From contig NZ_PQWO01000032.1 of NCBI RefSeq assembly GCF_003231495.1, forward strand, positions 1 to 32,000: DNA of 32,000 bases, written 5' to 3'. Shown here one piece after another: positions 1-29,469 of this stretch; the first letter of the stretch is position 1, and each line of letters starts with the position of its first letter. This DNA is from Acaryochloris thomasi RCC1774. GTDB lineage: Bacteria; Cyanobacteriota; Cyanobacteriia; Thermosynechococcales; Thermosynechococcaceae. The notes under the pieces were generated by a model. That model did no database searches. It saw only the letters and a list, made by a program, of their open reading frames with translations, and was not told the DNA's origin. A program made the translations under genes and the position numbers.

Positions 1-39
1 CCCAAAGATGATTTAGACTACCTGAAAATTGCCACCGGC

Positions 40-1266
40 ATGGCTCAGGGATATTCCCATGCCGACCTGACGCGAGATGTGGAGATCAAGGTAGGGGGTC
101 GCAAAGTCTTCGAGGTGGCCGGTGGTAAGGTTCTGCTCAATCAGCTTGGGCCAGAGCAGAATCGCAAGATATCTGTTGATATTCCTGGGATTACCTCAGA
201 TTCAACCCCCGCGCAACCCCAGGCCCAGCGCCCCGAGCAAAGACAACCGGATTTCCCCAGCCAGCCGATAGACGCCGCCGAACGTGCGCGAGCCGAACGG
301 GTGAAAACAAACCCGAATCCCCCCGCTCGCCAGAATGTTGTCTCAGGTCCACCTGTCGCAGGACAACAGGTACCGCTCACTCAGCAGCAAGCGCCTTTGC
401 AGACATTTGATGTGCCCCCCGCGCCAGTTCAGCAGTCGCCCCAGCCGGAGCAGCTTCAGCATTCAGCGCAGAGTGAGCCAAGTCTTTCCATTACGAAATC
501 CGACATTGAGCAAGTTGCTGCTGGTGGCAACCCATCGCTTGCGGTGACGATGGCTCGATATCTGATTGTTCGACAGGAATTGAATGCTGACAAGACGAGA
601 GTGAATCAACCCGGCTTTGAATATCTGCAGCCAAAGATAGACAAAGCCGAGCGTGTCCTTCCTGAAGTCCAGTCAAGGCTTGTGGAGGCGATGAAGGATG
701 CAGGAATTGAGCCAAGGTTTGAGTCTCAGGGGCTTGATATTGGTGCATCTCAGCCGGAGCCAGCCCAAGACTTACCCCAGCCAGTGCAGGAAGTGTCTCA
801 GCCGGAGCCAGCTAGCGCTCTCGACTATCTTCAGGAGTCGGATTCACAGCCAGCCCCCGCTCCGGCTGAGCCAGCCAACGAGATAGTCCAAAGCGTTTCT
901 CTAGATGACCCTGAGCTAAGCGTGAATCTAGAGCCTGCCCCTGAGCCTGGGTCCAGAGCGGATGTTCTTGATGCGGCGCATTACCTTGCCAATCAGTTAG
1001 GGGATCGCGATGGCTCCGGCCAGAAGAGCTTCGAGGGTGCCCACTTCAAGATTGAATCCTATGGTGAAGAGCTGAAAGTCTGGGATGGCAATGGCGACAA
1101 GGTGATCGATATTGACCCTGTTACAAACACCGATACCTATCAACCTAGCCCTGAATTTGCAGATATCCTAACCACTTCAGCCAACGAGCTAGAGCAACAT
1201 CAGTTCGGGCAAGAAGCTGAGCAGGAGCAGGAGATAGACGACGGCTTCGAGTTCGGTGATGACTGA
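40..1266 (+). CDS. Pro/Gln-rich hypothetical protein (possibly 5'-truncated by window edge) carrying the shared C-terminal module and acidic tail
   Basis: 408-aa ORF. The same frame is open from nt 1, so the start may lie upstream of the window. Its stop overlaps the coupling-protein start (GGTGATGACTGA). The last 73 aa (1045-1263) align with the C-termini of 12409..12792 and 27810..28997. Confidence 0.7.
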   Translation: MAQGYSHADLTRDVEIKVGGRKVFEVAGGKVLLNQLGPEQNRKISVDIPGITSDSTPAQPQAQRPEQRQPDFPSQPIDAAERARAERVKTNPNPPARQNVVSGPPVAGQQVPLTQQQAPLQTFDVPPAPVQQSPQPEQLQHSAQSEPSLSITKSDIEQVAAGGNPSLAVTMARYLIVRQELNADKTRVNQPGFEYLQPKIDKAERVLPEVQSRLVEAMKDAGIEPRFESQGLDIGASQPEPAQDLPQPVQEVSQPEPASALDYLQESDSQPAPAPAEPANEIVQSVSLDDPELSVNLEPAPEPGSRADVLDAAHYLANQLGDRDGSGQKSFEGAHFKIESYGEELKVWDGNGDKVIDIDPVTNTDTYQPSPEFADILTTSANELEQHQFGQEAEQEQEIDDGFEFGDD

Positions 1267-2923
1267 TTTTCTTGAAGTTCAACCGTCAGATCCAAGCCTC
1301 GTTAGATATGCCAAGAACAACCCGGCTCGTCTTGGGATGCTTTCGGCCTGTGTCCTGGCTGTCTTATTGCTGCAGGTCTTTGCCGGTCAGACCAAAAAGA
1401 CCAAGCTAGCCAAGGGGCATCTTGCCAAGGGGCTGGAGAAGAAGAACGCCCTAAATCTGATGAAGCAACAGCAGGCGGCAAAGAAGCTGACCAAAACTGC
1501 ATTCAACATCAGACAGCCAGGGCAAAAGGGATTTCTGGCAGTCCCTAATGCCCAGCCAGGGGTACTTGTGCTGGGTTCTCCGGGTGCGGGTAAGACGGCC
1601 TCGGTGATCAACCCGCTAGTGAGATCAGCGATTGACCAGGGCCACCGGATCATCATGTTTGACTGGAAGTATCCAGACCAAGCCTCTCAGCTCGTTCCCT
1701 ATGCAGCGGCGAGAGGGTACAAGCGGATCAATGTGTTTGCCCCTGGCTTTGCTGAGAGCCAGCGTATCAACCCCCTGGACCTAATTGAGAGTCCAGAGGA
1801 TATGATCGGTGCCCAGGAGCTAGCCCTCTCCATCCTGCAAAACGATAGCAAGGTTAATACCGATTCGACGACTCAATTTTTCTTGGATAGCGCCGCGAGT
1901 CTATTGGCTCCCATCTTTTGCGTCGTCAAAGGTTGCCAGTACCCCGATCTGCTGACGGTGTTGATGATTCTGCAATCTGAGAACCTCATCGAACGGCTCA
2001 AGTCAGCGAAGATCGGTCGTTATCAGCGCCTGATGCTGCAGCAAGCCATCGCAACCGCAGGCAGTCCAAAGCAGTTGGCGGGTTTGTTGACCTCGACCAT
2101 CAAGCCTTTGACGAACTTCCTACTGGGCGACAACATGATCAACGCCGTTGTTGGAGCGTCAAGCTTTGATCCAATCCTGAGGCCCAAAGAGATGATCGTC
2201 TTTGGGATGGATCGCAATAATTCCGAAGCCTTGAAGCCGTTGATTGGTTCAACCCTTCGGATGACGATGAAAAATAATTTGTTGAATAAATGTGGTGTTC
2301 CTCTTATCGCTTCTCTAGACGAGCTATCAACCCTGGAACTGCCGATTACAGAATGGCTCAATACAAATCGTTCGGATGGTTTTGTGGGCCTGATCGGTTT
2401 GCAGAATCTAGAACAGTGTGACAAGGACCGCCGCCGCGAGTTGAAGACGGGTTGCCCGACCAAAATGCTCTTCAATCCCAATGATGACGAGACTGCAGAA
2501 ATGTTCTCGAAGTGGCTTGGTAAGGAGCAAGTCGGCACAAAATCCAAAACAGAGGGCTGGAGTTCGGGTAAACGTAGCCGTAGCACTTCCGGTCGAGAGC
2601 AAGCCGTGGATATGTTGCAAGCAGCCGATATTCTGAAGCAGCCCGAGGGTGTTGCCTTGGTCCTCAACAGTGGGCATCGCAATGCAAAAGAAGCGTCGGT
2701 CCCCTTCCGGCATCGCTTCACTTATACCAGTAAAGACGAAGCGCAGGAAGCGAAACTGCAAGGGCTTTGGGAAGAAGCCTGTCTGCCTCGGCTCGTCGGA
2801 CGTGCTCCAGCGATGACGGGCGAAGTCGATGCAATGATTAAGGCCAGACGCAACGAAGCCAAGAAACTTCTAGGAAACCCTGATAAAGGGACACACAGGG
2901 GTCCAAAGGGCGGCAATAAATAG
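1256..2923 (+). CDS. Type IV secretion coupling protein (VirD4/TraG/TrwB family)
   Basis: 555 aa with an N-terminal TM segment (LGMLSACVLAVLLLQVFAG). Walker A is VLVLGSPGAGKTAS and Walker B-like is PLIASLDELSTL. GTG 1256 or ATG 1259 start overlaps the upstream stop. Confidence 0.85.
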   Translation: MMTDFLEVQPSDPSLVRYAKNNPARLGMLSACVLAVLLLQVFAGQTKKTKLAKGHLAKGLEKKNALNLMKQQQAAKKLTKTAFNIRQPGQKGFLAVPNAQPGVLVLGSPGAGKTASVINPLVRSAIDQGHRIIMFDWKYPDQASQLVPYAAARGYKRINVFAPGFAESQRINPLDLIESPEDMIGAQELALSILQNDSKVNTDSTTQFFLDSAASLLAPIFCVVKGCQYPDLLTVLMILQSENLIERLKSAKIGRYQRLMLQQAIATAGSPKQLAGLLTSTIKPLTNFLLGDNMINAVVGASSFDPILRPKEMIVFGMDRNNSEALKPLIGSTLRMTMKNNLLNKCGVPLIASLDELSTLELPITEWLNTNRSDGFVGLIGLQNLEQCDKDRRRELKTGCPTKMLFNPNDDETAEMFSKWLGKEQVGTKSKTEGWSSGKRSRSTSGREQAVDMLQAADILKQPEGVALVLNSGHRNAKEASVPFRHRFTYTSKDEAQEAKLQGLWEEACLPRLVGRAPAMTGEVDAMIKARRNEAKKLLGNPDKGTHRGPKGGNK

Positions 2924-2942
2924 CACCGGAACGCAGCTAGAT

Positions 2943-2972
2943 ACAGCTTTTATCTCCACTTGCAATAGATCG
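2943..2972 (+). promoter_or_regulatory. Conserved promoter/operator-like box, copy 1 (ACAGCTTTTATCTCCACTTGCAATAGATCG)
   Basis: One of nine copies of the ..ACAGCTTTTT-N6-8-CTTGCAATAGATAGA motif, each upstream of and co-oriented with a gene. Confidence 0.6.
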
Positions 2973-3221
2973 GTATAACCAAACCGACTTAAGCCCAGTG
3001 ATTCATTTCGCTGGCAGTCATTGGCAGAACTCAAATCTGAATAAAGGGCAGACCTTTAACTAGCAATGCCCTCAGAGGAGAGGGAACCACTTTCTACGGA
3101 GTGGTTTGGAGGTTTGATTCCTTCAATTGCTCTAGGTGCTGTGCGGGTCTCCAATCCCCCACAGTTTCCAAAACGATGTCCTTCGGGATGTCAGATCTGA
3201 CAATGAATTGGAGGAAAAATC
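2973..3221 (+). promoter_or_regulatory. Structured 5' leader, copy A (divergent paralogue of copies B and C)
   Basis: Aligns with 5585-5830 and 6840-7090. Contains a tRNA-like element (3062-3132), an anti-SD-loop hairpin (3139-3164), a UUCG hairpin (3176-3191), the palindrome TGTCAGATCTGACA (3189-3202) and SD ATTGGAGG before ATG 3222. Confidence 0.6.
3062..3132 (+). ncRNA. tRNA-like cloverleaf element inside leader A (not a decoding tRNA)
   Basis: Acceptor AGCAAT(G)/AATTGCT pairs 6 of 7. D-arm is CCTC/GAGG. The arm CCACT..C/G..AGTGG is capped by UACG. T-arm is GGAGG-TTTGATT-CCTTC. There is no anticodon loop and no CCA. Confidence 0.4.
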
Positions 3222-4175
3222 ATGTTTCAGTTGAGTGAGAAAGCTCTTGGTGAGACCTTTTGTGAACAAGCGGAGAACAAGGATCTGAGTACACTTCTGG
3301 CGTATCTGCGTTGGACCTTTTCAGGCCCCAATGTCGATATATTCAAGGAGTGGATTAGCCTCCCCAGTTTCTATAGGGACTGGTTTGATTTCGGAGACCG
3401 CAAAAATCTTCGTACTGTTTACAGAAGTCTTCTTCGGGCGAATTCTTGTTTGGCAGAAAGTTGTGAGTGGAGACTAAAGAAATTGTGTGGAAGTGCTGCT
3501 TGTTCTGAGACTGAGCTGACGGTTTATTACTCAGGTATTGCCGAGAGCAATATTGAGTGTGCCGGAGAGCGCAGTGATAGTCAGCCGATGGTATGGCTAG
3601 CTCAGCAATGTATCACTCTATGCGATCATTTGGTTCGCCAAACGTATCTGTTAAAGGAGACCAAGGCGGCGATTGAGGAGGCGGAGCTTTCTGATTGGCT
3701 CAAGGAGCAGTCGGAGACAGAGTGGGAGCCTGTGGCAAGTTCGTTTAACAACGTCTTGTCTCAAGAAGCCCATCCTTCTTTTGAGTCGTTGACGACTGAA
3801 AGTCAGGCGAGTGAGGAGTGTACCGATGAGGAGTGTAGCGACTGTCCTTTTGAGCCGGAGCGTCGGGCAGGTCTTGTAGACTGTCCTGGCGTTCCGTCAC
3901 GTTGCTCATGTGACGAGACGGCGGTATCTGGTGCTGACCCATCAGAGACGCAGGCTCAGGAGAGTGTTCGCCCTGTTGAGAGTAGCGAAAAACCTGCGAA
4001 GGATCTAAATACTCTTTGCTCAGTTTTAGCTATTGCGTTCGGTCTAAGTGCTGGGTTCAACCTGGCTCTGATAGAGGATCGGGTTAATCCCCCGGAAGTA
4101 GAGGCGCACGAAAAGCAGGAGCTGGTGAGTTATGCGAATAGCTTGCTAGTCGATGGCAGAGCGGTTCGTCCGTGA
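3222..4175 (+). CDS. Hypothetical protein (Cys-rich, acidic middle region, C-terminal hydrophobic segment)
   Basis: 317-aa ORF directly preceded by SD GGAGG and leader A. No family recognised. Confidence 0.65.
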   Translation: MFQLSEKALGETFCEQAENKDLSTLLAYLRWTFSGPNVDIFKEWISLPSFYRDWFDFGDRKNLRTVYRSLLRANSCLAESCEWRLKKLCGSAACSETELTVYYSGIAESNIECAGERSDSQPMVWLAQQCITLCDHLVRQTYLLKETKAAIEEAELSDWLKEQSETEWEPVASSFNNVLSQEAHPSFESLTTESQASEECTDEECSDCPFEPERRAGLVDCPGVPSRCSCDETAVSGADPSETQAQESVRPVESSEKPAKDLNTLCSVLAIAFGLSAGFNLALIEDRVNPPEVEAHEKQELVSYANSLLVDGRAVRP

Positions 4176-4194
4176 TGCTTGCACTTCCTAACTA

Positions 4195-5482
4195 GTACTG
4201 TCCGGCATGAATAGAGCCATTATTTAAGCCACGAGCGGTTTCCCCCTGTAAGTCCATTTGAAAGGCTTCGCCATCGTGTGGTTGAAGTACTCCACAAATT
4301 CTAGAATTCTTCGTTTGAGCTGCGCTTGACTTTTGAAGCTCGCACGCCGCAGTAGCTTTCGCACCAGAATGCTGAACCACAGTTCAATTTGGTTGAGCCA
4401 CGAGCAATGCTTAGGGGTGAAATGGACTACCAGTCGATGAGACGGGTTGGTCAAGAACTCAGCTCGCGTGACCATCGATTTGAGAATTCCCCGCTTTCCT
4501 TTAGCCCCCAATTCAATCTGCTCTTCTTCTAATGCAGATGCTAGGCGTACCATCGCCTCTGATTGATGAGTATTGAGACAATCCATCACCAAATGGTACT
4601 TTTTCGCTGCATTGTTTTCCTCAAGGAGACCGCTGACATGAGCCTCCAAATCCTTCTCAGTTCGGGTGTTGTCCACCGTTGCCTTGGCGATTTGGCCACT
4701 GGCGACATTCAAGCTAGCAATTAACGCTTGAGTGCCATGACGAATATATTCAAATTCGCGCTTGACCGGTCGACCCGGCTTCATGGGTATGTCTGGCATG
4801 GTGCGCTCTAGCGCCTGAATCCCTGGCATTTCGTCGAGACTGAAGGTCATCTCTCCCTGCTCAGCCCGTCCTTGAGCGTGCTGGTAGACCTGACAGATAT
4901 CGTCGACCTTGGCTTGGAACTGTGGGTCGGGGGGGATGCAACCAGTAGCGACTCTGGTGCGGCTTGAGGTCTGCTTCTTCCAGCAATCGACCCACATGGC
5001 GTTCACTGATACTCTCGACAATGCCTTGCTTGGTCATCTCAGTGGCTAATTCCCGAGCGCTCCAGTGACTAATAGGGAGACCATATTTCTCCGGTGGGTC
5101 ACAGGCAAGAGCATACAACTGGGTTAGTTGCTCTAAGCTAAATTTGGCAGGACCACCGGGGCGGGGAGCATCTTTAAGACGCTCTTCTACTGATAAATCG
5201 CAATCTGATAACTCTAGCCAACGCCGACGCCATAAGCGACTTGTATCGAGACTAATGCTCAAGGCTCTGGAAATCTCGCCATAGCCTGCGCCGGAGGCGG
5301 ACCGAAGGATGATCTTGGCGCGAAGGGCAATTTGTTGAGGCGTGCTTGACCGTCTCAGCAGCTTTTCTAGGGCTAGCCGGTCTGATTCACTCAACAATAC
5401 TGCCGGGGCCGATAATCTAGGCATCGAAACACTACGCGCTCAACTCCTTCTTGAGGATAGGGCTATTCGTGCCGCTCAGTAC
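4195..5482 (-). mobile_element. IS630-family insertion sequence
   Basis: Imperfect terminal inverted repeats: GTACTGTCCGGCATGAATAG (left end) against the reverse complement GTACTGAGCGGCACGAATAG (right end), 17/20 matches. Both ends are flanked by TA (4193-4194 and 5483-5484). Encodes an HTH plus DDE_3-type transposase. Confidence 0.85.
4224..5424 (-). CDS. IS630-family transposase in two overlapping frames (4861..5424 HTH part; 4224..5021 DDE part)
   Basis: N-terminal HTH, with DDE-like residues in SLDEMPG, LVMDCLNTH and WLNQIELWF. The frames meet at a C7 tract (G7 on plus strand, 4929-4935). Removing one C gives ..YWLHPPDPQFQAKV.. Confidence 0.85.
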
Positions 5483-5512
5483 TAGTCTCAATCACACCGT
5501 AGAAATAGCAAT

Positions 5513-5543
5513 CGCTCTCAGGGTAAAACCTGGGGGCGTTTTT
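5513..5543 (+). terminator. Rho-independent terminator of the conserved 3' cassette module
   Basis: CGCTCTCAGGG-TAAAA-CCTGGGGGCG followed by TTTTT. Preceded by the conserved CACACCGTAGAAA. The same module occurs at 6767-6801 and 7474-7506. Confidence 0.7.
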
Positions 5544-5551
5544 GTTTGAAT

Positions 5552-5584
5552 ACAGCTTTTTTCACGACTTGCAATAGATAGATA
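5552..5584 (+). promoter_or_regulatory. Conserved promoter/operator-like box, copy 2
   Basis: ACAGCTTTTTTCACGACTTGCAATAGATAGATA. Confidence 0.6.
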
Positions 5585-5830
5585 TACACCAAACCGACGT
5601 AAGCCCAGCGATTCATTTTGCTGGCTGTCACAGGTTCCAACTAGCCGAATAAAGGGCGTTTCATTCATTTGCGATTGTCCTCGGTGGGAGGAGCCATTCT
5701 ACGGAGTGGTTAGGGGTTCGATCCCTCCAATTGCTCTAGGCACTGCACGGGCCTCCAATCCCCTGCATTTGCCAAAGCGATGTCCTCCGGGATGTCAGTA
5801 CTGACATTAACTAAATTGGAGAATCGAACG
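5585..5830 (+). promoter_or_regulatory. Structured 5' leader, copy B
   Basis: Nearly identical to copy C over its central ~140 nt. Contains a tRNA-like element (5670-5736), an anti-SD-loop hairpin (5744-5767), a UCCG hairpin (5780-5795), the 16-bp palindrome ATGTCAGTACTGACAT (5792-5807) and SD ATTGGAGA before ATG 5831. Confidence 0.65.
5670..5736 (+). ncRNA. tRNA-like cloverleaf element inside leader B
   Basis: Acceptor (T)GCGATT/AATTGC(T) pairs 6 of 7, including one G-U. D-arm is CCTC-GGTGG-GAGG. The 6-bp arm CCATTC/GAGTGG is capped by UACG. T-arm is (A)GGGG-TTCGATC-CCTC(C), matching the canonical T-loop. No anticodon loop, no CCA. Confidence 0.45.
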
Positions 5831-6517
5831 ATGACTAACGCAACTAATAACGACGCGATCGCCAAGTTGACTCGCAACTCTTTAATCGAGGGCATGTGCA
5901 AACATGCTTCCCAGCATTCTGAAAAGCCAATCGCCAACGCGAAGGGTCTCAGGAACTGGGTCATCGCGACTTACTACGATGAGACCAATGCCGAAGTCGG
6001 TGGTCTTAACGGGTTCGCGCATGACTTGAACTATAAGGCTGTGAGTTTTCGGAAGCGTGAGCATTGCGAAAAGTTGTTTCGTCTATTGTCTGCCGATGCC
6101 TCCGGGTTGACGCAGCGAAAGGCGAAAGTTCAGTCAAAAGGCGGCGGTCGGTTGACGTGGGCAAAAGCCGTACGCGGCGTTGTCTATTTCATTGCGGACC
6201 ATGCAGAAGCTGCAAAAGCGGCTGTAGATGATATCCCAGATTCCGAGCTTAAATTAACGAGCATGAAGTCTGTGAGGAGTCTACAGAGCGCCCTGCAATC
6301 CCGGATTGAAAGCCACAGTGATGATCCTGTCGTCACTTTGCGGGCTGAGATTTACCAGTTGGTAGGGGTCAATACCGAAGACGATCTGCGGCAGTGGTTG
6401 AAAGACCAGTTTGCTCCAGAGGAAGCTGAGGCTATTGATGCTTGGGACTTTAGCAAACATTCGGACCTGCTGACGGTTCAGCGGATTGCTTTAGGTATGC
6501 AACAACAGGAGGCGTAG
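5831..6517 (+). CDS. Hypothetical protein
   Basis: ATG 5831 follows SD TTGGAGAAT. The track start at 5780 lies inside the conserved leader and is unlikely. 228 aa. The C-terminal ~55 aa resemble the product of 6519..6746. Confidence 0.7.
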   Translation: MTNATNNDAIAKLTRNSLIEGMCKHASQHSEKPIANAKGLRNWVIATYYDETNAEVGGLNGFAHDLNYKAVSFRKREHCEKLFRLLSADASGLTQRKAKVQSKGGGRLTWAKAVRGVVYFIADHAEAAKAAVDDIPDSELKLTSMKSVRSLQSALQSRIESHSDDPVVTLRAEIYQLVGVNTEDDLRQWLKDQFAPEEAEAIDAWDFSKHSDLLTVQRIALGMQQQEA

Positions 6518-6518
6518 C

Positions 6519-6746
6519 ATGAGCAGCGAGACAGTCTACCTACCCGGAGACCCCGTTGCCGTGCTCCGTGGCCAAATAGAAAGGGTGGTCAAGCCCCAGG
6601 GTGAGACATTTGCAGAAGCGGTGAGGCGATGGCTAATAGCCGAGCATTACCCGCATTATGCAGAGAACTTTGATCCAGATAGCTATATGGATCTGGTGCA
6701 GGTGGAAACCTGTATCAAAGCGAAGTTCTACCCTCTCTATAACTAA
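6519..6746 (+). CDS. Small hypothetical protein (75 aa)
   Basis: ATG lies 1 nt after the upstream stop. The pattern DPV..LRGQI..V....E.....RRWL...DL..V resembles the C-terminus of 5831..6517. Confidence 0.6.
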   Translation: MSSETVYLPGDPVAVLRGQIERVVKPQGETFAEAVRRWLIAEHYPHYAENFDPDSYMDLVQVETCIKAKFYPLYN

Positions 6747-6766
6747 CCACACCGTAGAAACAATAA

Positions 6767-6801
6767 GCGCTCTCAGGGTTAAACCTGGGGGCGCTTTTTT
6801 T
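6767..6801 (+). terminator. Rho-independent terminator of the conserved 3' cassette module
   Basis: GCGCTCTCAGG-GTTAAA-CCTGGGGGCGC followed by T7. Preceded by CCACACCGTAGAAA (6747-6760). Confidence 0.75.
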
Positions 6802-6806
6802 GCGCT

Positions 6807-6839
6807 CGACAGCTTTTTTGCCCACTTGCAATAGATAGA
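6807..6839 (+). promoter_or_regulatory. Conserved promoter/operator-like box, copy 3
   Basis: CGACAGCTTTTTTGCCCACTTGCAATAGATAGA. Confidence 0.6.
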
Positions 6840-7090
6840 CATACACCAAACCGACTTAAGCCCAGTGATTCATTTCATTGGCGGTCATGGGTTCCAACTA
6901 GCCGAATATAGGGCGTTTCATTCATTTGCGATTGTCCTCGGTGGGAGGAGCCATTCTACGGAGTGGTTAGGGGTTCGATCCCTCCAATTGCTCTAGGCAT
7001 TGCACGGGCCTCCAATCCCCTGCATTTGCCACCGCGATGTCTCGCAAGAGATGTCAGTACTGACAAAAAACAAAATTGGAGAATCGAATC
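6840..7090 (+). promoter_or_regulatory. Structured 5' leader, copy C
   Basis: Contains a tRNA-like element (6927-6993), an anti-SD-loop hairpin (7001-7024), a hairpin ATGTCTC-GCAA-GAGATGT (7037-7054), the palindrome TGTCAGTACTGACA (7052-7065) and SD ATTGGAGA before ATG 7091. Confidence 0.65.
6927..6993 (+). ncRNA. tRNA-like cloverleaf element inside leader C
   Basis: Sequence identical to copy B across the cloverleaf. Confidence 0.45.
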
Positions 7091-7420
7091 ATGTTTGGAT
7101 TTATACATCTAGTAGACGTTTTCTACACTCCTTTTGTGATCGTGGCGCTATCGGTTCTGTACAGGTCAATGAACGCCTGGGCAGAGTCGAATCAGGCTCA
7201 AGTTAAGTCAAAGGCAAACGCTGGAGCTAAGTCTTCGCCAACGGCTGTCCGACAGCCTGCCGCGAAAGCTGAGGTAACCCCTCCACGTAAGGTCGTTACA
7301 CCACCTGCCGTGAAGCCCATTGCTAAGCCCGCAGCTCAACCCAAGGCAAGGACGCCGCGCCCCACATTGGAAGATGTTATGAGACAGGAGGCAGAGCGTC
7401 GTCTCGGGGAAGCGTCATAA
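7091..7420 (+). CDS. Small membrane-anchored Pro/Ala/Lys-rich protein
   Basis: ATG 7091 follows SD TTGGAGAAT. N-terminal TM segment (FGFIHLVDVFYTPFVIVALSVLY), then a basic PAxK-rich tail. 109 aa. Confidence 0.6.
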   Translation: MFGFIHLVDVFYTPFVIVALSVLYRSMNAWAESNQAQVKSKANAGAKSSPTAVRQPAAKAEVTPPRKVVTPPAVKPIAKPAAQPKARTPRPTLEDVMRQEAERRLGEAS

Positions 7421-7473
7421 CTTCCTTGGCGATGTCGTTTTGTCTTCACTAGCCACACCGTAGATATATCAGC

Positions 7474-7506
7474 GCTCTCAGGGTCATACCTGGGAGCATT
7501 TTTTTT
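7474..7506 (+). terminator. Rho-independent terminator of the conserved 3' cassette module
   Basis: GCTCTCAGG-GTCATA-CCTGGGAGC followed by a T8 run. Preceded by CCACACCGTAGATA (7453-7466). Confidence 0.7.
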
Positions 7507-7511
7507 CGCTT

Positions 7512-7544
7512 CGACAGCTTTTTGCCCCACTTGCAATAGATAGA
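7512..7544 (+). promoter_or_regulatory. Conserved promoter/operator-like box, copy 4
   Basis: CGACAGCTTTTTGCCCCACTTGCAATAGATAGA. Followed by a different ~200-nt leader that shares only TAAGCCCAG and CAATTGCTC with leaders A-C. Confidence 0.6.
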
Positions 7545-7745
7545 TATCACAACCAACTTGTTTGGCGCATAAGCCCAGCAGATTAGTTTTTGTTGGCAGA
7601 GAGTCGGTGCGTAACCCGACTCATATTTTCAAGCCACTTAGAGCAATTGCTCAGCGATCGCTCCGAGTGGGGAGAGAAGGCCGTTGGTCTGCTAAGGCAT
7701 AGCCTTCGATTGCTGGAAACACCCAAGTCAGTCGGAGGACGACCA

Positions 7746-7985
7746 ATGGCAATTCCAGCGCACATCTGGAACAAGCACTTTCCTGAGAGTAATGCTGTGG
7801 TGCCCGAGCCGCAGTATGCGATCGGCGAGGAGGTTTACCTGAAACTTTGCCCAGAGAGGAGGTTTATCGTGATTCGGAACTACATAGCCTACGAACAACC
7901 GACGTCAGCCGGTGAGCGATGGCTAGAGTTATCGAGCTGCGATCGTCCTGCTTTCTGGAAAGAGAATCAGCTCCAGCGTGTGTAG
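7746..7985 (+). CDS. Small hypothetical protein (79 aa)
   Basis: ATG 7746 is preceded by a strong SD (GGAGGACGACCAATG). The track start at 7590 lies in the leader and is unlikely. Confidence 0.6.
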   Translation: MAIPAHIWNKHFPESNAVVPEPQYAIGEEVYLKLCPERRFIVIRNYIAYEQPTSAGERWLELSSCDRPAFWKENQLQRV

Positions 7986-8050
7986 ACGATAGGAGCCTGT
8001 GGTTATTCCACGGGTTCCTATGACCACCGTAATAAATATTGGAGAATGAA

Positions 8051-8584
8051 ATGAGTACTCAACTGATTACAGCTTTATCAACTGTCATTAACCAGCTAGA
8101 GAATGGTATCCGCTATCAAGTCTCTCGTGGGCTGCTGGATATGAAGAAAATGGACAGCACAAAGTACTGCCTAACCTCCCATTTGGTCAGTGCTCTAACT
8201 GACTTTAGCAATGTCACTCTTGAGCAGAAGCTATCGGATGGCCCCATTGGTCTAATTGCTGGGAACCTGTCATGGAAGACGGCAATGCAGTTTTGGGACG
8301 AATATCATCATCTATTGCAGCCAGGGATGGGCCTCTATGAGGTGTGGTCGTCTATTCAGTCTGCGGGCTTGACTCCTCAGGATCTAGAGGAGCTGGAGTT
8401 GCTAGGAAATCAACAGGTGAAGGAGCACTTGGGCGTACCTTCTGGGTATTACCTGGATAGCGATCGCTACGAGGTGGTGCTGAGGTACCTGACAGCATGG
8501 CGCGATCTTCTTTCAGAGAGTATTTCTCAGTCTCATGCGATCGATGGTGGCACTCAAAAGCAGCTAGCTGCTACGGCGTCTTGA
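8051..8584 (+). CDS. Hypothetical protein (177 aa)
   Basis: ATG 8051 follows ATTGGAGAATGAA, the same SD context as the cassette genes. No family recognised. Confidence 0.65.
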   Translation: MSTQLITALSTVINQLENGIRYQVSRGLLDMKKMDSTKYCLTSHLVSALTDFSNVTLEQKLSDGPIGLIAGNLSWKTAMQFWDEYHHLLQPGMGLYEVWSSIQSAGLTPQDLEELELLGNQQVKEHLGVPSGYYLDSDRYEVVLRYLTAWRDLLSESISQSHAIDGGTQKQLAATAS

Positions 8585-8679
8585 CTTGGTTGGAGTGAAC
8601 CTGGATAAGGCGAATCGTATTATTGCTTATCGAAAAGGAGTATTCATTCGCCTTCAACAACGTCAGCGGAGTAATTCAC

Positions 8680-8955
8680 ATGCATATTTTATTCATCACA
8701 GAAGATAGGCAGCAGCTTGAACAATCGTTGTCTCTCGACGATAGATTCACCGATTTATTCGCCCGACACCCGCTGTCTGCTCAGGAAGTACGGTTGATTG
8801 TCAATGGACGCAAGTACAACACCTGTTGTACTTGCGTTGCGACTCCTGTGGAGGCAGCAGCTTTGCCTGAGTTGGCTGTTGCGAATCTGAGAATGAATGA
8901 GGCTGGGGAGACTGCGATCCCAACTTCCTTGGATCTAGGAGGGCTGATCTCATGA
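8680..8955 (+). CDS. Small hypothetical protein (start uncertain; TTG 8623 is the alternative)
   Basis: ATG 8680 is preceded by GGAGTAATTCAC. The stop overlaps the next start (ATGA). Confidence 0.5.
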   Translation: MHILFITEDRQQLEQSLSLDDRFTDLFARHPLSAQEVRLIVNGRKYNTCCTCVATPVEAAALPELAVANLRMNEAGETAIPTSLDLGGLIS

Positions 8956-9140
8956 GGCACTTGGATTTGCTTGGGAGAGTGGGTAGTGGGAAATCTGTAT
9001 GCATCAGTACCCAATTGCAAGACTCACGAAGCGACAACAGCGCACCACTGCCTTTCGGTGGTTCGGCTGCTGTTGAGGCTGCAGACCTGCCTCCGGTGGC
9101 TTTGGACGATCTGCGGGAAAAGGGGACGCTTGATGAGTGA
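8952..9140 (+). CDS. Small hypothetical protein (62 aa)
   Basis: Supported only by start/stop overlaps at both ends: ATGA with the upstream gene and ATGAGTGA with the downstream gene. Confidence 0.35.
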   Translation: MRHLDLLGRVGSGKSVCISTQLQDSRSDNSAPLPFGGSAAVEAADLPPVALDDLREKGTLDE

Positions 9141-9450
9141 TTTCTTCGGCATAGCATCAAGGCGATTGTTGGGTCTCGTTGAGCAAATGGCTGATGAGTC
9201 CAGTGAATCTGCTGTGGCTATTCTAAGGTCGCCAGACTTGCGAGATCGCCTTGTTTCTTCTGACGATGGCGTGGTTTTGGAGACCCAGATTAGGCCGGAT
9301 GGCATTCATCGGACTGTACTTGGTTCCGATAAGAATTTTTTCGCGAATATTGCCTCCGGTCCTGGTCGCAACACCTTCGATGGGATCGTGGCTGGTGCAT
9401 TGAGGTTGGTAAGTGAGAGCGATGGAGAAGGAGTGCGACCATGCAGATAG
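9133..9450 (+). CDS. Small hypothetical protein (105 aa)
   Basis: ATG 9133 (MSDFFGIASRR..). The upstream part of the track ORF (from 8971) looks non-coding. The 3' end overlaps the next start by 10 nt. Confidence 0.5.
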   Translation: MSDFFGIASRRLLGLVEQMADESSESAVAILRSPDLRDRLVSSDDGVVLETQIRPDGIHRTVLGSDKNFFANIASGPGRNTFDGIVAGALRLVSESDGEGVRPCR

Positions 9451-10973
9451 TGGTACAGAAAATAGGTGACAGCAGCGTTTTGGTGACACCTGACGGCCAG
9501 CCAATCCCATACGTTGATTGTGACGATTGGACGCTTCATTTGATGCCCCAGATTTTGATAAACAGTCGGGTTTCCTCCGTCTCTCTGATTAGGGCGAATC
9601 TGAAGTTGAGGAATGATGGCGCAGGTCCATTAGGGTTGCCGCATTTTACCTTTCATAACGTCCTGCCCATCGACGTTCAGATCACTCAGCCCTTCCCTAA
9701 CGAGAGCTTTTATGTCGCTGGGAGTGTTGATCGCAAGATGGGTTGGGAGTTTCCATTGCTAGAGAATCAGACCTGGGCCGAATTGTCTTTAACTTGGGAA
9801 GTTGATCAGAATCAGCCTTGGACGATCCATCACCGCATCAGATTCAATTTGGAGCATACACAGCAGGGTCATCTCTTCTCAATGGCGAGTGCCAACACTA
9901 TGTTTGGCATCAATTCTCAAAATGCGAAGGCGATCGCGCACTTCGATGAATCATCACTGGGTCATACATTCGCGAAAAGCGATGATTCGTTTCACTGCAG
10001 ATTTGATAAAAGTCACTTCCGTATTGATTTTGAGCAGACACTTGACCTCCAAAGCCATGCCTGGAGTGACGTGCCCCACCTTGAGTTGCTTGAGAATCAA
10101 ACCCAGCTCCACAATATCGAGCCAGCTACAACGTTTTCGACCTATCGCAAAGAGCATCTTTCTTGTGCTTGTTTAGAGATCCCCTCTGACGTTTTGCTTG
10201 AAGCCGTAGAAGATGCGCGACAAGAGACTCATTCATTGTCAGCGGGTCAGTACCACACTTCAAAAGCAGTGCGAAAGATTTGCGACTGGTGGAACCAGAA
10301 TGCCCCGGTCGAATCCTTTCGCCATGCGGGAGGCGTCGAGATTTGGTGTCGGGTCGAAGATGGTCCTGAATATTGGTCGGCTCAGGAGGAACGACCTGAA
10401 ACAGATATCAAGTGCCTCTTAAAGCTAGACCCGAACACCTGTGCCCGTTTTGGCGATCACTTTTTGATTTACTTCCTAGAGAAGCCATCGGAGAATCGCA
10501 TCGACGATAACGATACTCGCTATATCAACTATGTCGATGGAACAAGTTGCACGAATATCTGGGATGAAGTCGAATATAGCTACTTCTCTTGGCAGAGCTT
10601 GTCTGTACTTCCTACGATGTTTCCGGTTGCTTATGAGCAAGTGTTGGCTAAGGGATACAGCCTTACTTCGCCAGAGCGTTTAATTTCTCAGTACCAGAGT
10701 GGAGAGCGTCGTTTTCCGATCCTCGCGCTAAGAGGCGCTAACTTTTCTGGGATGGATTTACGAGGCATCGATTTATGGGAGAGCGATCTGCGGGGTGCCA
10801 ATTTTAGTGGTGCGAACCTTGAAGGTGCATGTCTGGTGGGTTGTGATTTGCGAGGGGTAGATTTCTCGTATGCCAATCTATCGCGCACTGATCTTCGTAA
10901 TGTGTGGATTAAAGCCACGAATCTCTATGGGGCCAATCTAGAGGGGGCAGATCCTTGGCCTCCAGGTGCTTAA
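9441..10973 (+). CDS. Large hypothetical protein with a C-terminal pentapeptide-repeat domain
   Basis: 510 aa with SD GGAGAAGGAG. The C-terminus reads YQSGERRFPILALRGANFSGMDLRGIDLWESDLRGANFSGANLEGACLVGCDLRGVDFSYANLSRTDL.. (A(D/N)LxX repeats). Confidence 0.8.
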   Translation: MQIVVQKIGDSSVLVTPDGQPIPYVDCDDWTLHLMPQILINSRVSSVSLIRANLKLRNDGAGPLGLPHFTFHNVLPIDVQITQPFPNESFYVAGSVDRKMGWEFPLLENQTWAELSLTWEVDQNQPWTIHHRIRFNLEHTQQGHLFSMASANTMFGINSQNAKAIAHFDESSLGHTFAKSDDSFHCRFDKSHFRIDFEQTLDLQSHAWSDVPHLELLENQTQLHNIEPATTFSTYRKEHLSCACLEIPSDVLLEAVEDARQETHSLSAGQYHTSKAVRKICDWWNQNAPVESFRHAGGVEIWCRVEDGPEYWSAQEERPETDIKCLLKLDPNTCARFGDHFLIYFLEKPSENRIDDNDTRYINYVDGTSCTNIWDEVEYSYFSWQSLSVLPTMFPVAYEQVLAKGYSLTSPERLISQYQSGERRFPILALRGANFSGMDLRGIDLWESDLRGANFSGANLEGACLVGCDLRGVDFSYANLSRTDLRNVWIKATNLYGANLEGADPWPPGA

Positions 10974-11026
10974 GAACCATGTATTGAGATATTTGTGTCA
11001 ACAACAAGTTTGGAGAATGTGAACGT

Positions 11027-11644
11027 ATGCAATCAACTAATGCCAAAGCCTCTACGCCAGTTGACGAGATCCTTCTGCCAGCTCAGGCTGCGGCGTTCCT
11101 GGGTGTGACGGAGGAGCAGTTGCACAATGCTGTGTGCCAGGGTTATCTACCTGGGGCTTGCATTGATGGTCAGTGGCGGTTTAGCAAGCGCGGGCTGAGT
11201 AAGTTCTGCTGGCAAAGAAACAATCACAACGGTTCCGCGCCCTGGCTTGAGAACTCCTGTGGTCCCTACTGGTTGGGCGATTGGGCTGAACAAAAGGCAA
11301 AAGGTGTGATCGAGGCTTATGAGGCAGGGGAAAGATACTTCCCTGGACTCTCCATAAAAGGTGGACGTTTTGATGGTCAGGATCTTAGTGGTATTGATTT
11401 TTGGGAGTCCGGCTTGAAGGGTGCAAGCTTTTCTGGATGTATTCTCAAGCAGGCCATTTTTGTTGGTGCGGATCTTACCTCAGCCGTATTCAGGAATGCA
11501 GATCTATCCGATGCAAACCTTGAGGGAGCTGTGGTTGAGGATGCTGACTTCAGTGGAGCTATCCTGAATCGGACTAACTTTGCGGTCAGCTTGATGAGTG
11601 GAGCAAAGCTAGATGGAGTCAGTATCAGCATGGTCTCCTTCTGA
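11027..11644 (+). CDS. Excisionase-type HTH fused to a pentapeptide-repeat domain
   Basis: The N-terminus LPAQAAAFLGVTEEQLHNAVCQGYLPGACIDGQWRFSKRGL has an excisionase/MerR-like HTH pattern. It is followed by YEAGERYF and pentapeptide repeats. Confidence 0.75.
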   Translation: MQSTNAKASTPVDEILLPAQAAAFLGVTEEQLHNAVCQGYLPGACIDGQWRFSKRGLSKFCWQRNNHNGSAPWLENSCGPYWLGDWAEQKAKGVIEAYEAGERYFPGLSIKGGRFDGQDLSGIDFWESGLKGASFSGCILKQAIFVGADLTSAVFRNADLSDANLEGAVVEDADFSGAILNRTNFAVSLMSGAKLDGVSISMVSF

Positions 11645-11716
11645 CGGTTCGACTCTTGTGAGCAACAGTATTCACCCCGGTTCATTTTCGTTCTTTGTGT
11701 CTGGAACTGAGTTTAT

Positions 11717-12388
11717 TTGTGTAATGTAGTTGGAGCATGGCAGCTAGTGGAGTTAATCGACAGAAGCATTGCTGTGTCAGGGTCGAGTGAGATAAACCTT
11801 GAAGATGCTATATCCCTAATTAGTCTGGACAAAGAGCATATCCTCTCTGATGTAGGTAGGGGGAGGATAAAGGCAACTCGTGTGAATGGTGAATGGATGT
11901 TCGATCGTCAGGATTTATGTGTCTATCAGTACTACTACTATCCAGATTGTGATCAGTTAGAGCCATCAACTCTCTCTTTCCCGACGCCTTTGACCCCGGA
12001 GTCTGTATGGCGTGAGTACCAGCGAGGAGCGAGAGATTTCTCTTGCAGAGCAGTGAGCAACAATGCTGATTTTTCGTGTAAGTCATTGCCAGAAATTGAC
12101 TTTAATTATTCAAAGCTTGCGGGTGTTAACTTTGAAGGCTCAGACCTGAGGCAAGCCAACTTTCGCGATGCCAATATGTTTAGGGTCAACATGAGAAATA
12201 CAAAGCTGGCTGGGGCTAGCTTTGAGGGCGCTGAACTGCGAATCGTAGACTTCTCTGGTGCAGACCTAACCAATGTTAATTTCGGTGGTTCAAAAATCGG
12301 AAAGATTCAGCTCCAAGACGCAATCATTCGGAACACCCAGTTTTTCGAGGGAATTCTGTTGACAACAGTAAAGCCAGATTATCGGTAG
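11717..12388 (+). CDS. Excisionase-type HTH fused to a pentapeptide-repeat domain (start uncertain: TTG 11717 or GTG 11747)
   Basis: ISLDKEHILSDVGRGRIKATRVNGEWMFDRQDL, then YQRGARDF and repeats (VNFEGSDLRQANFRDANMFRVNMRNTKLAGASFEGAEL..). Confidence 0.75.
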   Translation: MCNVVGAWQLVELIDRSIAVSGSSEINLEDAISLISLDKEHILSDVGRGRIKATRVNGEWMFDRQDLCVYQYYYYPDCDQLEPSTLSFPTPLTPESVWREYQRGARDFSCRAVSNNADFSCKSLPEIDFNYSKLAGVNFEGSDLRQANFRDANMFRVNMRNTKLAGASFEGAELRIVDFSGADLTNVNFGGSKIGKIQLQDAIIRNTQFFEGILLTTVKPDYR

Positions 12389-12408: not shown

Positions 12409-12792
12409 ATGATTCAAGTTCCATCAGTAGAGCGGCAGATACCTCGGTACTGGTCTTCCAGTAAGCCAAAGTACCCTCTCCATGTGAGAACGGTGACTAT
12501 AACAGGGCACAGTGGTTTCATAACGGGCGTGGAGCAGTGTTTCTCAAGTGAGGGGATTGTATGGCGATACCAAATAACTTCCATTGAAGGCAGCGAAGTC
12601 ATTGTTTGGGATGACAATGGAGAGAAGGTGATAGATATTGCCCCAGATTCCAATCGTGATATCTACCAGCCCTCTTCAGAATTGGTAGCTCATCTCACGT
12701 CATTTGCCGATGAGCTTGAGCAACAAGAATTTAAGCGGGAACAGGAATCAGAACAAAAGGTTGATGAGGGTTTTGGTATTGATGATGACTGA
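12409..12792 (+). CDS. Small protein carrying the shared C-terminal module and acidic tail
   Basis: 127 aa. Residues encoded by 12577-12789 align with 1045-1263 (83% nt identity over a 42-nt core that I compared by eye). Ends ..KVDEGFGIDDD. Confidence 0.7.
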   Translation: MIQVPSVERQIPRYWSSSKPKYPLHVRTVTITGHSGFITGVEQCFSSEGIVWRYQITSIEGSEVIVWDDNGEKVIDIAPDSNRDIYQPSSELVAHLTSFADELEQQEFKREQESEQKVDEGFGIDDD

Positions 12793-12796
12793 GAGG

Positions 12797-13105
12797 TTAA
12801 CCCCCCAACCCCCAGCACACCCCCAGCATCAGCCGACACCAGAGGTGCGCCAGCCGCTGCAGCAGGTTTGGGTACTTCCCCAGTCGTTGGGTACGGACGC
12901 GATCGCCCCAGCCGAGCCAGCGATGGATGAAGCGGTGGGAGCCGGGAGCCAGCGGGAGTAGGTCGATTCCGATCAGCTCGTGGCCGTATCTACGGTAGTT
13001 CGTATGGTGGACATGCGCGTACTTATAGGTGCGTTTCCAGGGGCACAGAGCGCAGCGGTAGTTCCAGCGCTTGAGCGTTCGTTTTCTCAGTTCAACTGCC
13101 GTCAT
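12797..13105 (-). CDS. Small HNH-like nuclease-motif protein
   Basis: CALCPW..(9)..HVHHTNYRRYGHE..DLLPLAPGSHRFIH resembles an HNH motif, but the second Cys pair is missing. Convergent with 12409..12792. Confidence 0.5.
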   Translation of the reverse strand: MTAVELRKRTLKRWNYRCALCPWKRTYKYAHVHHTNYRRYGHELIGIDLLPLAPGSHRFIHRWLGWGDRVRTQRLGKYPNLLQRLAHLWCRLMLGVCWGLGG

Positions 13106-23323: not shown

Positions 23324-23671
23324 GTGAAACTGCCAAAACTGTTGCCATTCGGTGCAACCGTATTCCTGATCACCACTCGCACATCCTGGGCAGACAACAG
23401 CCTGGGTAGTTGCATCGTATCGGTGCTGTGTAGCGGGATCGCTTTCCTATATCTCGTATCAGCCTTTCAGCCCAAAGCTCTCTACTTCAATACCCGGTTT
23501 TTCGCGTTCTATTTCATCTCGCTAGCGTATCTGCTGGTGGAAGTTGCGATCGCACAATTTGATTCAGACCCCTATCAGGTGTTGTTTGCTGCCGCTGTCA
23601 CAGGGGTAGCGATGGTATCAGCGCTATTGGTTGAGCTGTTTTTCTTCATGAGGCAAAAGAAATGGATTTGA
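23324..23671 (+). CDS. Integral membrane protein (about 4 TM)
   Basis: 115 aa with a GTG start, hydrophobic throughout. The stop overlaps the AAA ATPase start (ATGGATTTGA). Confidence 0.6.
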   Translation: MKLPKLLPFGATVFLITTRTSWADNSLGSCIVSVLCSGIAFLYLVSAFQPKALYFNTRFFAFYFISLAYLLVEVAIAQFDSDPYQVLFAAAVTGVAMVSALLVELFFFMRQKKWI

Positions 23672-28997: not shown

Positions 28998-29469
28998 GAA
29001 CTTCCAAAATATCTGCTACAGGAGAGAGTCTAATTTTGGTGTTCAGCTCTTCCACTTCATTGGGCCTGAGAACCCACCATTCAGCGCTCCAGGGTTCTAT
29101 ATGCTCAGGTAGAGGCCACGGTAACGTAACCCGCAGCCATCGCTCTGGCGTGGTCTGGTTCTCGTAGGTATTGGCCTGTGAAAATCTTCCGTAGTGACAG
29201 ATCCATGTCACCTTCTGAGTGTTCGCCTCATTTAAGTAGATAGGGTATTGTTCTCGGACGGCGAGGGCTAAAGCTTCAAAGTCGATTGAGACATCATGCT
29301 CCATCGATTTGTTGCTGTGCAGGCCAGAAGCAACAACAATGACTTCTTCTTTCTGTTCGTCCCTATAAATTCTCAAGAGACAGTGACACGAAGCATCTTC
29401 TTCCCGCCAGTGAAAGAGGGTCTCCACCACTGGCGCTAGCTTGTCTGTCTTGACGACTTGATTAACCAT
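28981..29469 (-). CDS. Hypothetical protein (162 aa)
   Basis: Start at ATG 29469 after a strong SD (GGAGGTCAGCCAATG), overlapping the GT2 stop (ATGGTTAA). The track start at 29643 is unlikely. The 3' end overlaps the FolD-like start by 17 nt. Confidence 0.6.
   Translation of the reverse strand: MVNQVVKTDKLAPVVETLFHWREEDASCHCLLRIYRDEQKEEVIVVASGLHSNKSMEHDVSIDFEALALAVREQYPIYLNEANTQKVTWICHYGRFSQANTYENQTTPERWLRVTLPWPLPEHIEPWSAEWWVLRPNEVEELNTKIRLSPVADILEVLARDI

Follow-up and report, generated by a model that had tools for sequence, protein, structure and literature searches.

Why should a relaxase, a FolD-like enzyme and a protein encoded directly ahead of a type IV coupling protein (T4CP) all end in nearly the same handful of residues? 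The question arises from a stretch of 32,000 nucleotides of Acaryochloris thomasi RCC1774 (contig NZ_PQWO01000032.1, positions 1 to 32,000 of the forward strand; hereafter the window), which carries genes of a conjugative element and in which four proteins end in an acidic run, a glycine and an aromatic residue. We observed a strictly C-terminal motif, a module family that accompanies it, restriction to one clade of elements, an overlap with the T4CP gene and complementary charge on the T4CP. Judged from sequence comparison, the chances are about even that the tail is a clade-specific signal for recruitment to the T4CP or for translocation. In what follows, L-numbers denote related contigs or plasmids and P-numbers homologous proteins; tails are written up to the last residue, the stop codon following directly. 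The four carriers and their tails are:

1 to 1266, plus strand: ORF40-type gene whose 5' end lies beyond the window; in order, an N-terminal region also found in P0137/P0138, a P/Q-rich linker, module and tail
1237 to 1263, plus strand: ORF40 tail DDGFEFGDD, then stop; the last codons overlap the T4CP start codon
12409 to 12792, plus strand: ORF12409, an in-frame deletion chimera; 5' ~58 codons from a pentapeptide-repeat gene, 3' ~70 codons from a P0122-like module gene
12763 to 12789, plus strand: ORF12409 tail DEGFGIDDD, then stop; a motif match
13778 to 17761, minus strand: MOBF-type relaxase with TrwC domain, ~7 internal repeats and DUF3854/Toprim-like domain
13781 to 13819, minus strand: relaxase tail HEYEMEQEEGFEY, then stop (core EEGFEY at 13781 to 13798); no module upstream
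27810 to 28997, minus strand: divergent FolD-like protein (aa 1-284) plus C-terminal extension (Pfam THF_DHG_CYH_C, 2.4e-21)
27813 to 27833, minus strand: FolD-like tail DDGWEID, then stop; the L007 orthologue ends EDEGWEL

In a six-frame translation of the whole window, the motif [DE][DE]G[FW][DEG][FIYLVW] was matched exactly 4 times, and all 4 matches lay 0-3 residues before the stop codon of a long ORF (ORF40, DDGFEFGDD; ORF12409, DEGFGIDDD; FolD-like, DDGWEID; relaxase, EEGFEY). The expectation for 35 proteins of such composition is ~0.0004 C-terminal matches by chance. Since the motif was defined post hoc from these four proteins themselves, its recurrence in other contigs is the real test. 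The net charge of the last 15 residues sets the same proteins apart, being −6 to −8 in the four and ≥ −3 in the other 31 genes. The tail-coding DNA of the four genes uses different codons, and the likeness ceases at the stop codon; conservation is therefore at the protein level, and a DNA repeat as the source of the similarity is ruled out by the differing codons. Re-translation reproduced the C-terminal strings that the first-pass annotation had given for the four proteins. Its observations that the relaxase carries the same kind of tail and that the pattern runs from an acidic stretch through glycine to an aromatic residue are both borne out by the motif search, EEGFEY being one of the 4 matches.

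Next to the tail, the first-pass annotation had described a shared C-terminal module, beginning at nucleotide 1045 and present in three unrelated proteins. The corresponding features are:

943 to 1185, plus strand: module core in ORF40 (aa 302-382, EPGSRADVLDAAHYL...SANEL), defined by an alignment of 8 carriers; HMM E=1e-44
1186 to 1236, plus strand: acidic Glu/Gln-rich linker of ORF40, ELEQHQFGQEAEQEQEI, read from the translation
12583 to 12762, plus strand: partial module in ORF12409 plus acidic linker; beta strands and a helix, without the N-terminal helix; profile positions 38-85 only
27834 to 28109, minus strand: C-terminal extension of the FolD-like protein (aa 297-388), probably a divergent module (hhalign; AF2 H-E-E-E-E-E-H at pLDDT 61)

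The module is in fact longer than had been proposed. It starts at EPGSRADVLDAAHYL (aa 302, nt 943) and, with linker and tail, spans nt 943-1263 (aa 302-408). Its core in ORF40 has the predicted order alpha, beta4-5, alpha. ORF40 is also longer at its other end: P0137/P0138 align through their aa 85-207 to nt 4-402 of the window and have ~85 more N-terminal residues than ORF40, so that the ATG at 40 is probably internal. No stop codon lies upstream of this ATG. The gene had been given as 40 to 1266; it is cut by the window edge.

Homology between ORF40 and ORF12409 is clear, with 37 of the 67 C-terminal residues identical (BLASTP E=1e-21). Calling the carriers three unrelated proteins was an overstatement, as one of them, ORF12409, is a deletion remnant. 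Nucleotides 12448-12590 match L013 72-214, the 5' end of the pentapeptide-repeat gene, with 81% nucleotide identity, and nt 12583-12942 match L013 3249-3608, the 3' end of the gene for the module protein P0122 and the DNA downstream of it, with 95%. Relative to L013 (1-3610), ~3 kb were lost between the two parts. The intact module gene P0122 in L013 encodes 416 aa; ORF12409 keeps only the C-terminal two-thirds of the module, followed by a Glu-rich stretch, EQQEFKREQESEQKV, before the tail.

For the FolD-like protein, the claimed homology of the C-terminus is supported only weakly. Neither BLAST nor a 2-sequence HMM detected the module in its extension, and with an 8-sequence HMM made from module carriers the window protein was absent at E≤10 while its L007 orthologue reached E=0.22. 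After removal of the tails, hhalign gave a collinear alignment of the extension and the module at P=0.003-0.005 (~0.004) and a probability of 8-10%; 1 of 300 column shuffles reached the score. As modelled by AF2, ORF12409 and the FolD extension had helix, 4-5 strands and helix in the same order, at pLDDT 40 and 61. From these alignments and models we regard the extension as a probable homologue of the module. Ahead of its tail stands the Glu-rich stretch EIDPEIEVE. The enzyme part is itself divergent, scoring ~70 bits against NCBIfam cut-offs of 333-559.

To find further carriers, we ran an exhaustive HMMER search with the module profile over 1.84 billion representative proteins (cut-off E≤1e-3). 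There were 18 matches, 7 of them genuine single-stretch C-terminal ones: P0121 (identical to ORF12409), P0122, P0123, P0124, P0127, P0137 and P0138. The multi-stretch matches in the series P0125-P0136 were rejected as module homologues because they are repetitive proteins; their WD40 identity was not borne out either. The module begins EPGSRxDVLDAARYIAxxxG and runs for ~85 residues; an acidic linker comes next, and the tail last. It is always C-terminal and sits on at least 5 different N-terminal regions. These comprise the ORF40 type (P0137, P0138), an AbiEii nucleotidyltransferase toxin (P0123, Pfam 5.6e-34, which ends in the tail ELDDGLEI), three further regions that match no known family and, probably, the FolD-like enzyme. 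The alignment that underlies these statements (A5) holds the 8 carriers.

Pfam-A and NCBIfam gave no match at E≤0.01 for ORF40, ORF12409, P0122, P0124, P0127, P0137, the protein at L007 8699 or that at L009 8973. Searched with the module profile, the PDB had no sequence below E=0.39; Foldseek of the models against the PDB gave no match below E=0.07, and a word-index search with the 102-aa module nothing. Three window proteins looked up by exact sequence had no record. PLSDB likewise yielded nothing, either by tblastn of the module or by megablast of nt 1-12000, and no relatives were confirmed among genome contigs searched with the T4CP or metagenome contigs searched with an alignment of the relaxase C-terminus. 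The module is a real, very rare and previously undescribed domain family of ~85 residues. It is known from only ~7 contigs, mostly short metagenomic pieces and all in one clade, every module carrier being a singleton from metagenome assemblies. The first-pass annotation had reasoned that a module seated mainly in chromosomal, non-mobile DNA would speak against a docking role. We saw it in type IV secretion system (T4SS), plasmid-like or uninformative short contexts only, none demonstrably chromosomal, and this objection therefore falls away.

Recurrence of the tail was followed in the clade of elements whose T4CP is 44-72% identical to that of the window. L007, whose T4CP is 72% identical, has two module proteins, one ending VDEGIEIDGD and the other TDEGIEIDDD. 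The module+tail protein of L009 (T4CP 49%) ends EDKGFDIEDDD and was matched by the module HMM at E=8e-12 though it stood outside the profile. In L014 (3200-3440) the ending is IDEGLEIDDD after frameshift correction. This correction also disposed of P0124 as a tail-less module protein: the frameshift lies in a long-read contig of 2x coverage (L014), and the corrected sequence, ..LEIDEGLEIDDD, overlaps the T4CP start MMTSFLEV. Every module carrier thus also bears the tail. The more distant L003 and L008 (relaxase 51%, T4CP 44% identical to those of the window) add an AbiEii protein (EDDGFELD) and a 142-aa ORF (DADDMELD) in L003, both with a tail and no module, and a T4CP-coupled protein ending ESELELGD in L008. 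Because the relaxase and these two L003 proteins bear the tail alone, the tail, separable from the module, is the element common to all carriers. No such tails were found on cyanobacterial plasmids whose T4CP is 24-35% identical (L001, L002, L004-L006, namely Gloeothece pCy782203, Nostoc pNOS3756_1 and Acaryochloris pMB04, pMB08 and pREB3, with L004 = pMB04 and L006 = pMB08; ~185 kb read).

On pMB04 and pMB08, small ORFs (L004 32569-32886, minus strand; L006 18127-18495, minus strand) end ENDYEDEF and ENDYEEEF, respectively. The pMB08 ORF lies beside ArdC and the pMB04 one ~5 kb from ArdC. By their sequence, these endings may be a sister lineage's counterpart of the tag.

A protein of Acaryochloris thomasi RCC1774 annotated 'TraI' and encoded on a 39.3-kb contig matches the relaxase with 100% identity. 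All 3 orthologous relaxases of the clade whose C-terminus is seen retain an acidic tail that closes on a hydrophobic-x-hydrophobic/aromatic end: EQEEGFEY in the window, EQDEEMEY in L007 and EDDGMEH in P0002 of L003. TraI/TrwC-type relaxases have internal translocation signals in their helicase-associated region. No helicase domain was found in the window relaxase by Pfam; without the helicase-associated signal region, it would need another recruiting device. Between the TrwC and DUF3854/Toprim-like domains (aa ~575-900) it has ~7 tandem repeats of ~36-45 residues with the signature ELAxxI...AE...L. In a wider set of MOBF relaxase homologues (P0001-P0120), 16 of 120 end in G-hydrophobic-[DEGS]-hydrophobic, mostly as RG[LFM]D[FLM]ER, which is ~10-fold over the internal background; a C-terminus of the Gly-hydrophobic-x-hydrophobic kind may, on these sequences, be a wider feature of MOBF relaxases.

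The FolD-like enzyme allows a comparison across lineages. Its tail is kept in both clade cases (2/2: EDDGWEID in the window, EDEGWEL in L007). Orthologues on tail-less Acaryochloris plasmids are 57-66% identical and lie next to MOBF relaxases, but they have a different, helical extension of ~200 residues with a basic end. As far as these alignments go, the enzyme part is conserved and its C-terminal appendage is swapped between element lineages, as would be expected of an address tag matched to a lineage-specific receptor. A conserved three-gene cassette of GT2 glycosyltransferase, an ORF of 160-220 aa and the FolD-like gene adjoins MOBF relaxases on Acaryochloris plasmids; it occupies 27810-30300 (minus strand) in the window, 16476-21497 in L004, 18643-21449 in L005, 95-2129 in L006 and 15121-17541 in L007.

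If the tail is an address, what might read it? The likeliest candidate is the T4CP:

1259 to 2923, plus strand: T4CP of the VirD4/TraG type, 554 aa (Pfam TraG-D_C, T4SS-DNA_transf, TrwB_AAD_bind; P0139 is 100% identical)
2801 to 2920, plus strand: last 40 residues of the T4CP, basic (net +6); candidate tail receptor

The T4CP start codon at 1259 overlaps the ORF40 stop codon (GGTGATGACTGA), and the last codons of ORF40, GGT GAT GAC TGA, include the T4CP ATG. The coupling of the module gene to the T4CP gene had thus been recognized correctly in so far as the genes overlap, although the start is the ATG at 1259 and not 1256. A module+tail gene just upstream of the T4CP gene and overlapping its start was found in 6 of 6 elements with flanking DNA (the window, L007, L008, L009, L010-12 and L014); in L007, L008 and L009, mating-pair-formation genes lie upstream of the module gene.

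The T4CP of the window ends ...KGTHRGPKGGNK. To compare such ends, we computed the net charge of the last 40 residues (P0139-P0170, L001, L002 and L004). The values were +6 to +8 in all 5 clade members for which the T4CP is complete, against −11 to +3 in 32 cyanobacterial T4CPs outside the clade. Among these outgroup proteins, several have TraD-like acidic-hydrophobic ends, for example ..DNQDLSEGF and ..QQIESLL. In the L008/L010 sub-lineage (L008 9322-12143; L010 1-3296), the T4CP-coupled protein ends ELELEQE(Q)ESELEL(GD/S) and the T4CP ends KKLAAKVAALEKRLAT(V/I)ERQK; from their sequences, a coil-like E/K pairing of these endings, that is, co-variation of tail and receptor, is possible.

The first-pass annotation had proposed a docking or translocation tag. 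The comparative evidence fits a tag tied to the T4CP or the relaxosome: the relaxase tails (3/3), the overlap with the T4CP gene (6/6), the restriction to one clade and the basic T4CP ends would all be consistent with it, and binding to the T4CP and translocation by means of the tail are what we infer from them. The tail has the form of an acidic run, [DE][DEK][GE], a hydrophobic residue, [EGD], a hydrophobic residue, 0-3 acidic residues and the stop codon, and would act as a short linear docking motif of a small clade of Acaryochloris-type conjugative elements. It would mark the relaxase, the T4CP-coupled protein, the FolD-like enzyme, AbiEii-type nucleotidyltransferase toxins and a few proteins of unknown function. 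In most carriers other than the relaxase, the alpha/beta module of ~85 residues, the acidic linker and the tail would together form a bipartite C-terminal signal. The most likely receptor would be the element's own T4CP, whose C-terminal ~40 residues are, in this clade alone, strongly basic. Docking there would recruit the carriers to the secretion gate, either as substrates co-transferred with the DNA or as connectors between relaxosome and T4CP, or both. A more specific version, in which the clade exports the DNA-bound relaxase together with a defined cargo set (FolD-like enzyme, AbiEii toxins) into recipient cells by way of a module-linker-tail signal read by the basic T4CP end, with a polarity opposite to that of F TraD-TraM, is possible but rather doubtful.

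Several points weigh against a T4CP-directed signal. All tail-bearing elements belong to one clade, so the correlation between tail and T4CP charge may reflect a single evolutionary event (effective n ~1) and is a correlation, no demonstration. The basic end of the T4CP might do no more than bind DNA. The motif is loose, since in L008/L010 the T4CP-coupled proteins end ELELEQESELEL(GD/S) and lack the Gly-aromatic. Nor is there an obvious reason for the export of a FolD-like enzyme or an addiction-type toxin. No mating-pair-formation genes are present in the window, so the A. thomasi copy might be incomplete. Finally, an AAA ATPase of the same element would be an equally plausible reader of acidic tails. 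More generally, the receptor could be another protein, such as this Cdc48-like AAA ATPase or the module itself. A TPR-like gene 3' of the T4CP in L010-L012 was dropped as a candidate reader, since its product has a signal-peptide-like hydrophobic N-terminus and the window has no homologue.

Among the alternatives, the least improbable one, unlikely as we judge it, makes the module the functional unit. The T4CP-coupled protein would then be a fixed adaptor of the TraM or IcmSW kind and not a substrate, and cargo would join through module-module or tail-module contacts. The invariable place of the module+tail gene upstream of and overlapping the T4CP gene (6/6) would suit such a stoichiometric partner, as would the occurrence of the module on at least 5 different N-terminal regions and of the tail on every module carrier. 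Yet the tail occurs with no module on the relaxase and, in L003, on the AbiEii protein and the 142-aa ORF, making it the universal element; no sign of module oligomerization was seen, and the structure models are of low confidence.

It is also improbable, and a little more so, that the tail is a generic acidic-hydrophobic hub or DNA mimic of the type seen at the tip of SSB (the protein that binds single-stranded DNA) or in T7 gp2.5-gp4, serving a DNA-processing partner (primase, polymerase or SSB) or auto-inhibition of DNA-binding surfaces with no link to secretion. In the SSB tip and in T7 gp2.5/gp4, short acidic-aromatic tails are shared by different proteins with a common docking partner; several T7 replisome proteins share such tails for docking on one partner. 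The chemistry of the SSB tip is the same, a C-terminal acidic run with an aromatic residue, and the relaxase tail follows directly on the DUF3854/Toprim-like domain. The carriers described here, however, are no OB-fold SSBs, lack D-D-D-I-P-F and usually have further acidic residues after the motif, and where the SSB and T7 tails belong to a replisome, these stand among secretion and relaxosome genes. The FolD-like and AbiEii carriers have no obvious role in DNA replication, the scan of window ORFs detected neither an SSB nor a polymerase gene, and such a hub would leave both the linkage to the T4CP gene and the charge reversal of the T4CP unexplained.

The AAA ATPase named above is encoded at:

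23662 to 25125, plus strand: Cdc48/VCP-D2-like AAA ATPase (PF00004); in L003 a homologue adjoins the relaxase; another candidate for receptor or unfoldase

As the actual reader of the tail, it would unfold and hand over, remodel or degrade the substrates, the T4CP being no direct receptor; taken as a whole we hold this account to be quite unlikely. It is favored by the presence of the gene (closest to Cdc48/VCP D2) both in the window and next to the L003 relaxase, and by the fact that classic-clade AAA unfoldases commonly thread acidic, unstructured termini. T4SS transfer needs substrate unfolding, according to PMC5826034, which we also counted in its favor. Homologous AAA genes, however, are present as well on cyanobacterial plasmids that lack the tail (L001, L002 and many others), so that their presence does not track the tail; none was seen in the 20 kb of L007 that were read, and the conserved overlap with the T4CP gene would remain unexplained. 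Conservation of this ATPase extends to many cyanobacterial conjugative plasmids. Its ending, ..PPSEMFEFMED, loosely resembles the tail but was not counted as one, being weakly acidic and part of the conserved AAA C-terminus.

That the tails have no specific function, being low-complexity ends, by-products of a ribosome-binding site (RBS) or start codon in overlapping genes, or relics of recombination, is very improbable: the last codons of ORF40 do contain the T4CP ATG, its purine-rich acidic codons could serve as an RBS and ORF12409 is a recombination product, but no downstream gene overlaps the tail codons of the relaxase, the FolD-like protein or AbiEii, which rules out such a by-product for these carriers, and their tails are nevertheless conserved across contigs with 51-67% identical proteins. 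Residues are kept while the codons differ, and the chance expectation is ~0.0004.

The remaining genes of the window include ArdC, three pentapeptide-repeat proteins and an IS630-type transposase. The transposase (4224-5424, minus strand) consists of an HTH ORF overlapping a DDE_3 ORF, which could reflect a programmed frameshift or a disrupted copy; it lies ~1.3 kb downstream of the T4CP gene, with an ORF at 3222-4175 between. The three pentapeptide-repeat genes are consecutive (9441-12388, plus strand) within the conjugative region, and one has an N-terminal HTH_17. Pentapeptide genes lie near module genes in L013 and L010 too.

How does a T4CP-directed tail compare with known signals? The element encodes both a T4CP and a relaxase, and the relaxase itself bears the tail, general traits of a conjugative signal. 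A type I secretion signal can be set aside, as no ABC exporter is encoded in the vicinity and the tail lacks a hydrophobic ending. The nearest architectural parallel is XVIPCD, the C-terminal VirD4-interacting domain of ~120 residues in the X-Tfe effectors of Xanthomonas, whose tail is needed for export (PMC8740702). XVIPCD is a folded C-terminal alpha/beta domain with a flexible tail, found on many unrelated enzymatic or toxic N-termini, and it binds the T4CP through the all-alpha domain of VirD4. By sequence, the predicted module with its tail would match this architecture and its apparent portability. The fold of XVIPCD is alpha-alpha-beta-beta-beta; the AF2 models here suggest alpha, beta4-5, alpha (pLDDT 40 and 61). 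The XVIPCD tail is Gln-rich with a non-acidic end, whereas here the tail is acidic to its last residue. XVIPCD is unreported on relaxases and belongs to a proteobacterial killing system, in contrast to the cyanobacterial conjugative element considered here. The module matched no curated family and no solved structure, its sequence not having been compared directly with those of XVIPCD.

The BID domain, a helical bundle, is a signal shared between relaxases and non-relaxase substrates. In Bartonella Beps, it forms a two-part T4SS signal with a short positively charged tail (PMC8714903; Schulein 2005). Here too a C-terminal domain and a short charged tail would make a bipartite signal. The charge is opposite, however (−6 to −8 over the last 15 residues), the module is predicted, with low confidence, to be beta-rich, and the relaxase has the tail only, without the module, unlike a BID-type arrangement. 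In the Dot/Icm system, which is of type IVB, a Glu-rich 'E-block' in the last ~20 residues is bound by DotM and read by a basic surface of the coupling complex (PMC8740702). A Glu-rich region at about −20 to −8 is likewise present here (ELEQHQFGQEAEQEQEI, EQQEFKREQESEQKV and EIDPEIEVE), with hydrophobic residues near the end. Yet the last ~7 residues are basic and Ser-rich in the Dot/Icm signals and acidic in the present ones (DDGFEFGDD, DEGFGIDDD, DDGWEID, EEGFEY). No Pfam match to the Dot/Icm families (DotL/DotM/IcmSW) was found among 30 window ORFs, and the T4CP is of the TraG/VirD4/TrwB type.

F TraD provides a third precedent. Its acidic tail with a terminal aromatic residue binds TraM, and the last 8 residues decide plasmid specificity (PMC3159463). 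The likeness is that of an acidic-aromatic tail as the link between T4CP and relaxosome, but the polarity is reversed: F has the acidic tail on the T4CP, whereas in the present clade that end is basic and the presumed partners of the T4CP bear the acidic tails. No TraM-type RHH protein was found by Pfam among the window ORFs. The comparison with the SSB tip and with TraD-TraM drawn in the first-pass annotation stands as a chemical analogy and not as family membership. Precedents exist for C-terminal, partly acidic or bipartite T4SS signals and for acidic-aromatic tails between T4CP and relaxosome (PMC8740702, PMC3159463). By sequence, tail and module would be a signal of a kind already known, the bipartite C-terminal T4SS signal, and a member of no named family, because they match no family or structure, are opposite in charge to BID, end in acid unlike Dot/Icm signals and are carried by the partners of the T4CP, unlike the TraD tail.

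To our knowledge, cyanobacterial conjugation machines are almost unstudied and nothing is known of how they choose their substrates. A survey of T4SS classes from 2014 came upon neither experimental nor computational studies of them (PMC4027160). A motif that can be recognized in silico on a relaxase, on enzymes and on toxins, together with a charge-reversed T4CP end, offers a testable hypothesis of substrate selection. If it is true, a new type of signal would stand beside BID, XVIPCD and the Dot/Icm E-block, and a small, transplantable tag would be at hand for protein delivery into cyanobacteria. Were the T4CP not involved, these elements would still have a docking hub in common, and the module would be a new family of portable domains. 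If the T4CP does read the tail, conjugative elements of phototrophs would co-deliver metabolic or toxic proteins.

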